IMG/VR virus record: IMGVR_UViG_3300008448_011250
Span: 22,600 to 86,599 of that record
Length of the DNA stretch: 64,000 nt
Strand: one strand, 5' to 3'
Origin: a virus
The position numbers and the translations under genes are program-made. The notes beneath the pieces were generated by a model. The model saw only the letters and a list, made by a program, of their open reading frames with translations. It was not told the DNA's origin and did no database searches. Positions 54,205-60,587 of this stretch are shown here, one piece after another (the stretch's first letter is position 1; each line of letters begins with the position of its first letter).

Positions 54205-55487
54205 AACAGTTATTATTTTTATTCTTATTGGTTTCATCTTTTGCATACACCCAATGCAATCAATATCAAATATATGAAAGCTTTACTAGCACAGTTACAA
54301 CACAAGGCGGAACGTGGGCTGTAAACTCAATGATTGCAGTTACATCGCCAGTACGTACTGGAACTCATGCAATTGGATTTAATGGAACGGGTGATTGGAT
54401 ACGCACTCCGCAAATTGCAAATCCAGGCGTATTAACTTTTTGGTATCGTAGAAGTTCAAACACAACTGCTTGGACCTTAAACATACAGACATCGCCAGAT
54501 GGAACAACTTGGACGACTCGAGGATCAATCACAACGGTTACTAATGCATATGCTCAATACACGCTTAACATTGGTGCTTTGGGTTTAACTAATGTATTCA
54601 TACGTTTATTAGACGCGCGAGCATCTGGAGCACATGAAAGATATATAGATGATTTCGGATTGACGTCTACATCAGCTAGTTCGAACACACTTATTCCTAT
54701 TTTATCAGCTTGTAGCCAAACTCTTAATTCTGCATTAACATATAGAATTACAGATGATGGCGGCCCGGCAGGCCCTACATCCGTTGGGTATACAAATAGT
54801 GTCGATAGAATACTAACCTTAACACCATCTGATGTTACACAAAAATTAAATCTTTCTTTCACACAATTAGATTTAGAAACCACTTATGATTTCTTATACG
54901 TATATGATGGTGCAAATACATCGGCGCCATTGTTAGCTACACTTAATGGTTCAACGCTTCCCGCAGACATCATGGCAACTAATTCTGCAGGACAATTAAC
55001 ATTGAGGTGGACAACTGATATTTCGAATGTAGGAACATGGGGCGGGTTTTTTGCAAATGCAACTTCAGTTACTGCATTGCCTGTAGAACTTTTATATTTC
55101 GAAGGAGTTCCATATCCTGCATTCAACATGTTGAAATGGGCTACCGCATCTGAGAAAGATGCATCGCATTTTGTAGTTGAACGATCTGCAGATGGAGAAC
55201 AATGGATTGCAGTAGGAGAACGAGCAGCTGCTGGCAATTCTACGCAAACACAAAACTATTCATACTTAGATGTCTTTAATGAATTTAACATACATTATTA
55301 TAGATTAATGCAATATGATATAGATGGTGCACTAGATATATATGGCCCGATTGCAATTGACAATACACGTAAAACAAAACAAGTTGTTAAATGGGTAAAT
55401 TCATTAGGACAAAAAGTTGGGACTGAATATAAAGGTTTAGTATTTGAAATATACGAAGACGGAACCAGTAAAAAAATAATCAGATAA
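54201..55487 (+). CDS. Secreted Bacteroidota-type protein with CUB-like domain and T9SS-CTD-like tail
   Basis: Signal peptide ending ...AYT|QCN; DLETTYDFLYVYDG...GQLTLRWTTD; LPVELLYFEG; NSLGQ...YEDGTSKKI. Confidence 0.75.
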   Translation: MKQLLFLFLLVSSFAYTQCNQYQIYESFTSTVTTQGGTWAVNSMIAVTSPVRTGTHAIGFNGTGDWIRTPQIANPGVLTFWYRRSSNTTAWTLNIQTSPDGTTWTTRGSITTVTNAYAQYTLNIGALGLTNVFIRLLDARASGAHERYIDDFGLTSTSASSNTLIPILSACSQTLNSALTYRITDDGGPAGPTSVGYTNSVDRILTLTPSDVTQKLNLSFTQLDLETTYDFLYVYDGANTSAPLLATLNGSTLPADIMATNSAGQLTLRWTTDISNVGTWGGFFANATSVTALPVELLYFEGVPYPAFNMLKWATASEKDASHFVVERSADGEQWIAVGERAAAGNSTQTQNYSYLDVFNEFNIHYYRLMQYDIDGALDIYGPIAIDNTRKTKQVVKWVNSLGQKVGTEYKGLVFEIYEDGTSKKIIR

Positions 55488-55489
55488 GG

Positions 55490-55518
55490 TTGGATATTAG
55501 CTTTTTATTTTATATAAT
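55490..55518 (+). promoter_or_regulatory. Class I promoter
   Basis: TTGGAT-17 nt-TATAAT. Confidence 0.65.
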
Positions 55519-55537
55519 ATAGAAAAATAAAAGAGCT

Positions 55538-56710
55538 ATGAAAAAAACAAAATCAATTGGCGTAGTAAAGTATACGCAAGATGGAAATCCTTACATTTCC
55601 GAATTAGGTACTGGTAATGACATTACTTCATTATTCCGATCCATTATGGTGCAACATGCAATAGATAATGATGAAGCATTGATATTTGATCATGAATCGG
55701 GTCGAGCAAAACGCGTCGCATTAGATCAGATTAATCAAGAAGAAATAAAAGCAACATATCCACCAGAACCACAACCTATGCCTAAACAAGAGTTAGATCC
55801 AGTATTAGCATTAATTCACAATGCACATAAGATTAAACCAGCAAACTTAGAAATGTCTGACATCAAATGGAAGTATCTGGTTCGCTCAGCAGTTCGTGGT
55901 AAAAATATCATGATGGTCGGTCCTGCAGGTTGTGGTAAGACACAAGCAGCAAAGGAATTGCCTAAAGCAACCAATCGTCCTTTTTTCTATTTCAACTTAG
56001 GTGCAACTCAAGATCCAAGAGCAACTCTTATTGGTAACACGCATTTCAAAGATGGTCAGACAACTTTTGATGAGTCTGCATTTGTTAAAGCAATTCAAAC
56101 TGAGAATGCCGTTATCTTGTTAGATGAGTTATCCAGAGCTCACCCTGAAGCGTGGAACATCTTAATGACAGTACTTGATGAAGGTCAAAGATATTTGCGA
56201 TTAGATGAAGATGTTAATTCTCCAACTATTAGAGTTGCTGCAAATGTATCCTTTATTGCTACAGCAAACATTGGTACGGAGTATACATCAACCAGAGTAT
56301 TGGACCGAGCATTGATGGATCGTTTTGAAATTATTGAAGTTGACATTTTGTCTTTATCTCAAGAAGAAGATTTATTGACGAAGCGTTTTGGTGACAAGGT
56401 ATCTGGCAATCTTATTCATTCAGTAGCAGATATTGCAGATGCAACTCGTAAAGAATGGAGATCAGATGAAGGCAAATTATCCACAATGATATCAACCCGT
56501 ATGACGGTTAGGATATGTGAGTTGTTAGCAGATGGATTTTCTTTGTCAGAAGCCGCTGAGGTTGCAGTTCTTCCATTCTTTGATGCATCAGGCGGAACAG
56601 ATTCTGAAAGAACCTTTGTTAAGCAAATTATCCAAAAGCATATGGCAACCGAAATGAAAGACATTTTCAATACCGGTAAAGACGAAGACAGCACCGGAAT
56701 ACCATTTTAA
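55538..56710 (+). CDS. MoxR-type AAA+ ATPase (CobS/CbbQ-like)
   Basis: GPAGCGKT, LLDELSR, ATAN, DRALMDRF, ISTR. Confidence 0.9.
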   Translation: MKKTKSIGVVKYTQDGNPYISELGTGNDITSLFRSIMVQHAIDNDEALIFDHESGRAKRVALDQINQEEIKATYPPEPQPMPKQELDPVLALIHNAHKIKPANLEMSDIKWKYLVRSAVRGKNIMMVGPAGCGKTQAAKELPKATNRPFFYFNLGATQDPRATLIGNTHFKDGQTTFDESAFVKAIQTENAVILLDELSRAHPEAWNILMTVLDEGQRYLRLDEDVNSPTIRVAANVSFIATANIGTEYTSTRVLDRALMDRFEIIEVDILSLSQEEDLLTKRFGDKVSGNLIHSVADIADATRKEWRSDEGKLSTMISTRMTVRICELLADGFSLSEAAEVAVLPFFDASGGTDSERTFVKQIIQKHMATEMKDIFNTGKDEDSTGIPF

Positions 56711-56786
56711 TTTTTCATAGCTCGAAAAGGAGACAGTTACGGCAAAAATCACCATTCGTTAATCAGCGTGATCTGTCTCTTTTTTT
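56711..56786 (+). terminator. Structured 3'-UTR: anti-start segment plus long hairpin terminator
   Basis: GAGACAGTTACG...CGTGATCTGTCTC stem, 25-nt loop, T7; 56711-56723 is complementary to 55533-55545. Confidence 0.65.
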
Positions 56787-56797
56787 ATGCAACTAGG

Positions 56798-56826
56798 TTG
56801 GATAATACTGAATTTTTTCTTATATT
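56798..56826 (+). promoter_or_regulatory. Class I promoter
   Basis: TTGGAT-17 nt-TATATT. Confidence 0.65.
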
Positions 56827-56846
56827 ATTTATATAAAAATAAAGAT

Positions 56847-58934
56847 ATGAAACAGGGAGATAACAAGACACAATGGGGCGCATCTAGCTTTTGGTTGGAT
56901 CGAGATTTTGATGTTGATTTTAAAAGAGAAGAAGGCGGCGTTGACTTAGCTAAATTAGCGGCAGCACAAAGAGCAATTGCTAACTTTGTTAATATTGTTA
57001 CGGGCAAACAAATTCCTGTAGTATTTCAAAGCTCTGACAATAGTTACACAGATGGCGAACAAGTTGTTATTGGTTCTAAATTAGAAGATAAACATTTTGA
57101 CCCAGCTGTTGGATTAGCCTTACATGAAGGCTCACATATCTTATTGACAGACTTTACCATGTTTCAAACAGTTCAAGGCGGCTTCACTAGCTTAATTGAA
57201 AATACAAAGTTTGCGAATGCAGTTCGTATGCGCGGATTAGACCCGGAGATGAAAATGACATCTCGAGAATTTACAATCATCAAAGACCTATTGAATTGGA
57301 TCGAAGATCGTCGTATTGACTATTACATATACACCACAGCTCCAGGATACCGTATGTATTATGAAGCAATGTATGATAAATATTTCAATGACAAAATTGT
57401 TGATAAGGCTTTGAAGACCAATGAGAAGTGTGATGAATCTTGGGATGATTACTTTTTTCATATCATCAATTTCACTAATCCAAATCGCAACCTAGATGCA
57501 CTTAAACAATTAAGAAGTATATGGTCAATGATTGATTTGCGAAACATTAGCAGATTGAAATCTACCGATGATGCATTAAGTGTAGCAATTGAAGTATACA
57601 AAGCAATCAAAGATGCAGTCACTGAAATAGATATGCCAGGTAATAATGGACAAGGACAAGGAGAAGGACAGCCTGGAGAAGGACCTATAGGAGGCGGAAG
57701 CGGTGATGGATCGGGAGAGCCTACGGATATTAATGAAGATGATGATGAAAGTGATAGCGATAGTGAAGGAGATGAAGAAGGAGAAGGTAATGGTGGCGGT
57801 TCCGAATTGACACAAAGAGAACTAGAAAAATTGCAAAAAGCAATTGATAAGCAACGAGAATTTTTAAATGGCGATTCTAAAAAATCTGGAAAGATTACTA
57901 AGAAGAATGCATCAATTATCAATGCCTTAAGAGATTCAGATACAAATATCAAACAAGTAGATACAAGCGCAGAAGGTGCTGGCTCAGCAAACTTTGTTGA
58001 TACCGTTGTTATTAAAAAGTTGACGCCAGGTATTATTTGTTCATTGTCTAATTTATTTGCAACTAATTCCGAAGATTATGTCACCGGAAAGCGAGATTAT
58101 GACACAGATGTTAAAAAAGGTAGTTACTATGCTAGATGCTTGAAAGAAACTGATGATGCAGTTACGAAAGGTATCATCTTAGGCAAACAATTGGGTCGCA
58201 AGCTCCAGGTAAGAGACACGGAACGCAGTTTGAAATCAACTCGTTTGCAATCCGGTAAAATTGATAGACGTTTAATTTCGCAGTTGGGTTATGACAATGT
58301 AAATGTATTTCACCGAATAGTAACAGACCGTTATAAGAATTATTTTATTCATATTTCAATTGATGCTTCAGGATCAATGTCAGGCACTAAGTTTTACAAT
58401 GCAATTACATCTGCAGTAGCAGTAGCACAAGCAGCATCAATGACAACGGGTATTAGAGTCCAAATTTCATTCCGAGGAACAAATTCAATTGGCTCTGGCG
58501 ATAAATGTATAACATTGTATGCATATGACTCACAACATGATAAAATGAGTAAAATCAAATCATTGTTTAAGTATTTGCGTACCTTTGGTGTTACTCCGGA
58601 GGGAATTGCATTTAAAAGTATTGAAAAGGAAATTCGTGCAGCAGCAAAAGGAGATGAGTGTATCTTTATTAACTATTCCGATGGCGAGCCAACTGACATC
58701 TCCGGAGTGCAAAGTTCATATGATGGTGTAGAATATACAAGACGCGTTATTAATTCATTTAAAGAAGCAGGCATCAATGTAATTTCATATTTTATCTATC
58801 AAGGTTATATGGGTTCAAACACGAAATATAATTTTACTAGAATGTATGGCCCAGATGCACAATTCATTGATCCAATGAACATGACACAAGTTTCCAAAAC
58901 TGTCAATCAAAAGTTCTTGGAAATGGCTGAATAA
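56847..58934 (+). CDS. VWA-domain partner of MoxR (CobT-like) with HExxH domain
   Basis: LHEGSH...NWIEDRRID; acidic Gly-rich linker; IDASGSM MIDAS, TPE, SDGEP. Start moved downstream of the promoter. Confidence 0.85.
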   Translation: MKQGDNKTQWGASSFWLDRDFDVDFKREEGGVDLAKLAAAQRAIANFVNIVTGKQIPVVFQSSDNSYTDGEQVVIGSKLEDKHFDPAVGLALHEGSHILLTDFTMFQTVQGGFTSLIENTKFANAVRMRGLDPEMKMTSREFTIIKDLLNWIEDRRIDYYIYTTAPGYRMYYEAMYDKYFNDKIVDKALKTNEKCDESWDDYFFHIINFTNPNRNLDALKQLRSIWSMIDLRNISRLKSTDDALSVAIEVYKAIKDAVTEIDMPGNNGQGQGEGQPGEGPIGGGSGDGSGEPTDINEDDDESDSDSEGDEEGEGNGGGSELTQRELEKLQKAIDKQREFLNGDSKKSGKITKKNASIINALRDSDTNIKQVDTSAEGAGSANFVDTVVIKKLTPGIICSLSNLFATNSEDYVTGKRDYDTDVKKGSYYARCLKETDDAVTKGIILGKQLGRKLQVRDTERSLKSTRLQSGKIDRRLISQLGYDNVNVFHRIVTDRYKNYFIHISIDASGSMSGTKFYNAITSAVAVAQAASMTTGIRVQISFRGTNSIGSGDKCITLYAYDSQHDKMSKIKSLFKYLRTFGVTPEGIAFKSIEKEIRAAAKGDECIFINYSDGEPTDISGVQSSYDGVEYTRRVINSFKEAGINVISYFIYQGYMGSNTKYNFTRMYGPDAQFIDPMNMTQVSKTVNQKFLEMAE

Positions 58935-58964: not shown

Positions 58965-60587
<1,623 letters not shown>

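Follow-up and report, generated by a model that had tools for sequence, protein, structure and literature searches.

A conserved anti-start element next to the stop codon of a phage MoxR-like ATPase gene, predicted to close the mRNA end to end

Introduction

To our knowledge, functional end-to-end pairing in bacterial-type mRNAs is known from a handful of cases, i.e., RNAIII, icaR, hbs and the type I toxin mRNAs. We describe here a comparable arrangement in a virus, found in a stretch of DNA of 64 kb (hereafter the window, to whose positions all the coordinates refer) that makes up the 3' part of the 86.6-kb IMG/VR virus record IMGVR_UViG_3300008448_011250, a record with an estimated completeness of 46%. 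The gene concerned codes for a MoxR/CbbQ/CobS-like AAA+ ATPase of 390 amino acids (aa), and the element under study consists of the first 13 nucleotides (nt) of its 3' untranslated region (3'-UTR), which are complementary to the region around the start codon of the same gene and which we will call the anti-start element.

In the icaR mRNA of Staphylococcus aureus, as in the phage gene, a segment of the 3'-UTR is complementary to the ribosome-binding region of its own mRNA, and in icaR the pairing prevents ribosomes from initiating on full-length mRNA (Ruiz de los Mozos et al., 2013; PMC3868564). There, a UCCCC anti-Shine-Dalgarno motif in a 3'-UTR of ca. 390 nt binds the Shine-Dalgarno (SD) sequence, and a site for RNase III is created. 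In contrast, the phage arm (UUUUUCAUAGCUC in RNA) pairs with the AUG and its flanks with no UCCCC anti-SD/SD pair, and the element abuts both the stop codon and the terminator. The icaR element is not conserved even in S. epidermidis (PMC7821165), while the phage pairing is conserved, with covariation, across the phage family.

The hok and aapA type I toxin mRNAs also have an end-to-end closing helix supported by compensatory changes, and in them this helix makes the completed mRNA translationally inert (PMC6733600). They are short mRNAs whose products are toxic peptides; they have an antitoxin RNA in antisense, are activated by 3' trimming and form metastable hairpins that prevent co-transcriptional translation (PMC6733600). 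A preliminary description of the window, made from the sequence alone, had likened the ATPase mRNA to hok. The likeness holds for the end-to-end closure, on the grounds of folding and covariation, but it does not extend to the product, which is a 390-aa AAA+ ATPase with no small toxin open reading frame (ORF), nor to the masking hairpins, none of which is predicted to form during transcription of the phage mRNA. The nascent start is instead predicted to be open, which suggests co-transcriptional translation as the productive phase, contrary to hok/aapA. A sequence scan gave no evident antisense gene at the locus, the minus-strand promoter-like matches being at background level.

The hbs mRNA of Bacillus subtilis shares with the phage gene a short pairing, of 13–14 nt, between the ends of a monocistronic mRNA (Braun et al., 2017, as summarized in PMC7821165). 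In that summary the pairing protects an RNase Y site in the 5'-UTR and is reported as stabilizing, with no report of start codon masking, whereas the phage helix covers the AUG. The hbs element is not conserved in close relatives, and the same review underlines that even at this short distance conservation is lacking in functional 3'-UTRs like the ones of icaR and hbs (PMC7821165). Judging from the sequences, the phage case differs from all the cellular examples in its deep conservation with covariation, and it belongs to neither the icaR nor the hok/aapA family.

In the RNA phages MS2 and Qbeta a long-distance interaction masks the replicase start and is opened by the ribosomes translating the coat gene. 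The resemblance lies in a start site masked by a distant complementary segment, with a helix that translating ribosomes can open. However, the masking segment of MS2 belongs to another cistron and serves to couple two genes, while the element described here is located just past the stop codon of its own gene, in the transcript of a double-stranded DNA (dsDNA) phage. The sib retroregulation of int in lambda acts via an RNase III hairpin and decay from the 3' end. It is likewise a phage cis element downstream of the gene that exerts negative post-transcriptional control (proposed, in the present case), but it involves no pairing with the start codon. In the literature outside subscription journals we have found no description of an anti-start element of this kind in a dsDNA-phage gene.

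Complementarity Between the Start Codon and the 3'-UTR

The ATPase gene is located on the + strand at positions 55538–56710, with the ATG at 55538–55540 and the TAA stop codon at 56708–56710. Its 5' arm (55533–55545, + strand; GAGCTATGAAAAA, or GAGCUAUGAAAAA in RNA) covers positions -5 to +8 and spans the ATG, and the 3' arm, i.e., the anti-start element (56711–56723, + strand; TTTTTCATAGCTC), is complementary to it at 13 of 13 positions, with 1165 nt in between. The exact reverse complement reported in the preliminary description was thus confirmed. No base separates the stop codon from the 3' arm, which runs directly into the hairpin of a predicted intrinsic terminator (56724–56786, + strand). 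Both in the window and in the whole 86.6-kb record the 13-mer was found only at the two arm positions, and within the window the near matches that could serve as further targets were at chance level. A gene on the minus strand at the 3' arm was also considered and rejected, since the reading frame there is just ATG AAA AAT TAA.

As a control, the 40 nt of each start region were compared with the 63-nt stretch that follows the stop codon in every other gene of the window. A Watson-Crick run of 13 nt appeared in 3 of the 4970 cross-gene pairs, which corresponds to a probability of ca. 0.04 of finding at least one among 71 genes. By itself, the evidence from the window is suggestive and marginally beyond chance. 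In the other genes of the window the complement between a start and its own post-stop region never exceeded 9 nt, and therefore such pairing is not a genome-wide habit. This is an AT-rich genome (GC content of 34% in the window, with practically all genes on the + strand), in which many genes start with Met-Lys-Lys and have T-rich 3' ends, and a fortuitous match would agree with statistics that are marginal after multiple testing. This explanation is effectively refuted by the analysis of the orthologs, through their conservation, their compensatory changes and a composition-matched control.

Conservation and Covariation Among Orthologs

Two scans of IMG/VR provided ca. 90 distinct orthologous loci (67–94% protein identity; designated by L numbers below), of which 76 unique loci were scored. 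With G-U allowed, the start region and the 3'-UTR could form 10 or more contiguous pairs in 60 of the 76, compared to 5 of 76 when the 3'-UTR was reversed as a control. In most loci a near-invariant TTTT(T)CATAGCTC is located a few bases from the stop codon, and in 55 of the 67 loci with a helix the 3' arm starts 0–4 nt after it. In the alignment of 74 sequences the 3' arm stands out as a nearly invariant non-coding sequence, while the adjoining terminator has been replaced repeatedly between lineages, so that a different hairpin is found at the same place.

The covariation was evaluated for a helix of 14 pairs after aligning 74 complete mRNAs with MAFFT. The fraction of paired cells was 85.4%, against 34–49% when the partner was slid by 1–3 columns. 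The covariation score was 0.152 (0.098 +/- 0.007 in the shuffled controls) and there were 27 double-sided changes where 8.0 +/- 2.5 were expected, values that in both cases were reached by none of 500 shuffles. The preliminary description had suggested a search for compensatory changes in orthologous moxR genes, and had counted a lack of complementarity in orthologs among the findings against its proposal. The opposite was found: about 80% of the unique loci retain the pairing, their differences include compensatory double changes as well as G-U intermediates, and the arms co-vary at positions -2, -4, -5 and +6 in at least six clades. At -2 the pair types in the alignment were UG (34), CG (17), UA (9) and AU (4); at -4, AU (54) and GC (8); at -5, GC (44), AU (5) and CG (2); and at +6, AU (60) and GC (5).

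Where the start region differs between loci, the 3' arm follows. The clade of the window has GAGCU in the 5' arm and AGCUC in the 3' arm; in many loci GAGUU faces AGCUC with a U-G pair, and in L022/23 GAGUU faces AACUC. Other combinations were CAGUU with AGCUG (L120/L131), (C)GGUUAUGAAAA with UUUUCAUAACC(G) (L063–L071), UAAGAUAUGAAAGA(U) with (A)UCUUUCAUAUCUUA (L073–L079) and GAUAUAUGAA with UUCAUAUAUU (L042), and in L043, L046 and L162 the helix is lengthened to 14–16 bp. In the protein tree the helix appears on both sides of the midpoint split, and six or more clades with separate support carry compensatory states, indicating repeated events and not one inherited change. As far as the alignments can tell, the pairing is kept by compensatory evolution, far beyond chance.

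Among the positions that depart from Watson-Crick pairing, G-U outnumbered A-C by 24 to 9 (2.7-fold), which fits pairing in the sense RNA and not in DNA or in an antisense RNA. This bears on the idea that the arms act at the level of DNA, as inverted repeats for a recombinase (an invertible or excisable cassette) or for a single DNA-binding protein, kept alike by conversion or co-evolution. The repeats do flank the whole gene, and gene conversion could also change both arms in concert. However, the arms differ at -2 in 34 of the 74 aligned mRNAs, with a T in the 5' arm where C would be expected, a difference that RNA tolerates as U-G; all the ca. 90 loci are in the same orientation; and the arms are only 9–16 bp long, with a drift in helix length and register of the kind expected for RNA. 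The junction predicted for an inverted cassette had no matches in IMG/VR, and the invertible cassette was rejected. One observation could be read in favor of excision, i.e., a metagenomic DNA contig (run X1) that joins 55541 to 56880, skipping the gene (1338 bp), and whose match on one side is no longer than 21 letters. It possibly comes from a relative that lost the ATPase gene by recombination between similar promoter/start regions, and it may also be an artifact. Altogether, we consider a feature of the DNA to be very improbable.

The pairing is confined to relatives of about 67% protein identity or more, since two distant homologs lack it. In the Microcystis phage Mel-JY01 (52% identity) and in the uncultured 484-kb phage LR756508 (48%) the complementarity between the start and the 3' end was 6–7 nt, a background level, and the gene architecture was different. 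Rfam gave no match in the region of the window, and for eight orthologous loci it gave only one sub-threshold match to a plant snoRNA.

Predicted Folding and a Model of Closure in cis

The predicted mRNA has 1266 nt, and the closing helix of 13 bp was found in both its minimum free energy (MFE) and its centroid structures, abutting the terminator stem with no unpaired base between them. The pair probabilities of the helix were 0.70–1.00 in the ensemble for the full-length mRNA, and the isolated duplex has a predicted energy of -16 kcal/mol. Eight diverse ortholog mRNAs gave the same picture, the helix being part of the MFE structure in 8 of 8 with a mean pair probability of 0.93–0.97 in 7 of 8. 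When fragments of increasing length, nested at the 5' end, were folded as a proxy of the nascent RNA, the probability of positions -5 to +8 being unpaired was 0.55–0.97 at lengths between 60 and 1186 nt and 0.03 at 1199 nt, the fall coinciding with the inclusion of the 13 nt that follow the stop codon. No local hairpin masking the start was predicted over the same 60–1186 nt. The switch put forward in the preliminary description is therefore reproduced by the folding, with a start region that is predicted to be open in the nascent RNA and ca. 97% paired once the 13-nt tail has been added.

The best-supported reading of these sequence comparisons and predictions, to which we would give a probability of about 0.6, is that the two ends of the mRNA pair in cis and occlude initiation on the completed molecule. 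The ATPase mRNA would have a short leader and be essentially monocistronic. Once transcribed, the anti-start element would pair with positions -5 to +8 around its own AUG, and the resulting helix would stack on the terminator hairpin. In the nascent RNA the start region would be single-stranded and ribosomes could load on it for about as long as transcription of 1.2 kb takes, while in the completed transcript the AUG would be buried and new initiation inhibited. The amount of protein made per mRNA would then be set mainly by the co-transcriptional window, as a limit on the dose or timing of a chaperone-like AAA+ ATPase. A stable helix over an initiation codon blocks binding of the 30S subunit. 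Long-range pairing against the ribosome-binding site (RBS) represses translation in vivo in icaR (PMC3868564) and in the hok/aapA type I toxin mRNAs (PMC6733600), and a massively parallel screen of 8-mers in B. subtilis indicates that long-range anti-RBS sequences repress, and that they are generally selected against and depleted (Gill et al., preprint, PMC12697547). Repression in vivo by the phage pairing, its action in cis and a purpose in dose limitation are what we infer from this set of data.

The phage element represents the opposite of the depleted anti-RBS sequences (PMC12697547), i.e., an anti-start that is maintained by compensatory evolution, in a broad family of large, uncultured freshwater phages and in the gene of an ordinary enzyme. 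It provides a natural, phylogenetically validated model for examining how end-to-end closure of an mRNA shapes translation, and a simple part of 13 nt that could limit the protein yield per transcript. It is also a reason to search systematically for stop-adjacent anti-start elements in phage and bacterial genomes.

Several points weigh against closure in cis. Both ends of the transcript are predictions, for which metatranscriptomic contigs covering ca. 55544–56720 offer weak support. No terminator lies between the stop codon of the upstream gene (55485–55487) and the ATPase promoter, which directly adjoins it, so that read-through transcripts with a long 5' extension are possible. The shuffle controls ignore phylogeny, and the way in which the structure was derived favors the slid control. 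Ribosomes on the last codons would repeatedly melt the helix, given that it begins right after the stop codon, so that closure is maybe transient on a busy mRNA. The element, or the element together with the terminator, has been lost in L025, L039/44, L057/59, L061 and L126/127/132, indicating that it is not essential. Finally, the covariation supports pairing in cis and in trans equally.

This last point leads to the main competitor of the model, which the preliminary description had already offered as its alternative. A 3'-UTR of ~76 nt (anti-start plus terminator), released by processing or resistant to decay, would mask the AUG of other ATPase mRNAs, providing a delayed negative feedback and a shut-off timer for the infection. 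In 3'-UTR-derived small RNAs (sRNAs) a single-stranded seed is placed directly 5' of an intrinsic terminator (reviewed in PMC7821165), and the same layout is found here, the anti-start (56711–56723) being followed by the hairpin and U-run (56724–56786). The A/U-rich junction at the stop codon could be an endonuclease site, and in L064 and L066 the element has stayed at the 3' end after the insertion of an endonuclease gene that put it 1.9 kb away from the start. On the other hand, intramolecular pairing is strongly predicted, no Rfam family was matched, and a search of the record for the exact 13-mer gave no further target. We regard action in trans as unlikely.

The position of the anti-start element, 0–4 nt from the stop codon in most loci, also allows a further reading that we consider rather unlikely. 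A ribosome at the stop codon would unwind most of the helix while beside the AUG that the helix holds, so that each termination event would free the start site of the same mRNA and take place next to it. Such a closed loop, re-opened by termination, would make translation self-sustaining, and the mRNA would lock shut permanently when the traffic lapses. If true, this would amount to a bistable or geometric-burst control of the yield per transcript, a mechanism that, as far as we know, has no precedent in the mRNAs of bacteria or phages. In the clade of L073 the arm is found 26–34 nt after the stop codon, behind an extra hairpin, and this distance argues against an obligatory proximity to the stop.

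The helix might also serve to protect the mRNA, as in hbs of B. subtilis, keeping RNases away from the 5' region or the 3' end and coupling stability to translation without limiting the latter. According to the summary cited above (Braun et al., 2017, in PMC7821165), the hbs mRNA is guarded against RNase Y by a 14-nt pairing between the 5'- and 3'-UTR, and in the phage mRNA a helix stacked on the terminator could hinder 3' exonucleases. However, the AUG is buried in the helix, which extends from -5 to +8, and ~8 bases of the leader stay unpaired at the predicted 5' end of the closed mRNA, which is the geometry of occlusion and not of 5'-end protection. Besides, long-range pairing of the RBS promoted decay in B. 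subtilis and did not prevent it (PMC12697547). Protection as the main role is in our view improbable.

Transcription Unit of the ATPase Gene

The preliminary description had assigned to the ATPase gene a promoter and a terminator of its own. Both are predicted here as well, and would place the two arms on a single transcript; in the orthologs the promoter is kept and a terminator is present. The promoter (55488–55518, + strand), proposed from its match to the consensus and its conservation, has GGTTGGATA as a -35-like box, a spacer and TATAAT (55513–55518). Counted from TTGGAT/TGGATA at 55490, with a 17-nt spacer, it agrees with the sigma-70 consensus at 10 of 12 positions. GGTTGGA...TTATTTCATATAATATAG is kept upstream of the ATPase ATG in nearly all the orthologous loci. 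A second copy (56796–56826, + strand), recognized by the motif match, would serve the gene of a 695-aa protein that follows (ATG at 56847) and forms the downstream boundary of the ATPase transcription unit. The type of promoter shared by the two genes (55488–55520 and 56796–56828) can be written as GGTTGGA(T/A)-N13-TTATTTC(A/T)TAT(A/T)ATATAG, and upstream of the ATPase ATG it is retained in nearly all the orthologs (L001–L080). It resembles sigma-70 -35/-10 boxes with extended conservation and is unlike the -33/-7 consensus of Bacteroidota.

The position of the -10 box implies an A-rich leader of ~12 nt (predicted at 55525–55537, + strand) without a well-spaced SD sequence. The use of SD sequences is weak in the window, where a 4-mer SD core precedes 18 of 69 genes, and the leaders of the 69 ORFs are A-rich, with A favored at -3 and a second codon that begins with A in 61%. 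These features are compatible with SD-independent initiation, as in Bacteroidota, and with weak use of the SD the accessibility of the start site should matter. The terminator consists of an A-tract, the GGAGACAG stem, an inner stem, CUGUCUC and a U-run. The hairpin (GGAGACAG...CTGTCTC stem plus T-run) has a predicted energy of -21.9 kcal/mol (z = -3.9), and it was missed by a simple terminator scanner because its loop is longer than the scanner allows.

In three metatranscriptome runs from two studies we found contigs that were 90–97% identical to the ORF and covered the interval mentioned above. No contig from the RNA runs reached the flanks that the DNA run covers, and the ends varied between contigs. 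They are compatible with a monocistronic ATPase transcript with short UTRs and give a weak hint of it; contigs inform on neither ends nor abundance, and carry-over of DNA is possible, for which reasons we give this evidence little weight.

Natural Variants of the Element

Some of the lineages that have lost the element illustrate how this took place. In L039/44, L057/59 and L061 the anti-start and the terminator are both missing and the ATPase gene runs directly into the next promoter or gene, while in L025 the arm is partly deleted and the terminator is kept. A different event was found in L064 (3629–4340) and L066. The insertion there, exactly at the junction of the ATPase stop codon and the anti-start, is a gene coding for a 214-aa GIY-YIG homing-endonuclease-like protein, whose Pfam match (E = 1.5e-4) falls just short of the cut-off. 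The anti-start and the terminator are unchanged, and are now found after the stop codon of the endonuclease, 1.9 kb from the ATPase start. The sister contigs L063 and L065 do not have the insertion.

The extra small hairpin mentioned for the clade of L073 (ACGCAGCTATGCGT; L073, L075, L078, L079 and L080) separates the stop codon from the anti-start, and its loop and stem hold AGCTATG, a copy in sense orientation of the start motif of other clades. In L113, L120, L131 and L162 a longer conserved terminator, GGGG-YGAAAG-(inner hairpin)-GGAAG-NNGAGUAG-YCCC, is present ~15–75 nt after the ATPase stop codon. It had no match in Rfam and could contain a loop-E/sarcin-ricin-like internal loop, with GAAA opposite GAGUAG.

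Gene Family and Neighborhood

The assignment of the ATPase is based on Pfam, PHROG and tblastn. It has an AAA_5 core followed by a CbbQ-type C-terminal region, with matches above the cut-offs to AAA_5 (PF07728, 1.7e-22), bpMoxR (PF20030, 6.7e-07) and CbbQ_C (PF08406, 5.9e-05), and it belongs to PHROG 249 (CobS-like, 8.8e-33). By tblastn we confirmed 247 relatives in IMG/VR, while a megablast search gave no near-identical phage genomes. Downstream are located the gene of the 695-aa protein (56847–58934) and a full-length GroEL-type chaperonin gene (58977–60587). The 695-aa protein was suspected of being a VWA/CobT-like partner, but it gave no sequence match in Pfam or the PDB, and PHROG 1576, of unknown function, was its sole assignment. 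The ATPase, the 695-aa protein and the GroEL-type chaperonin could form a phage-encoded chaperone/remodeling module.

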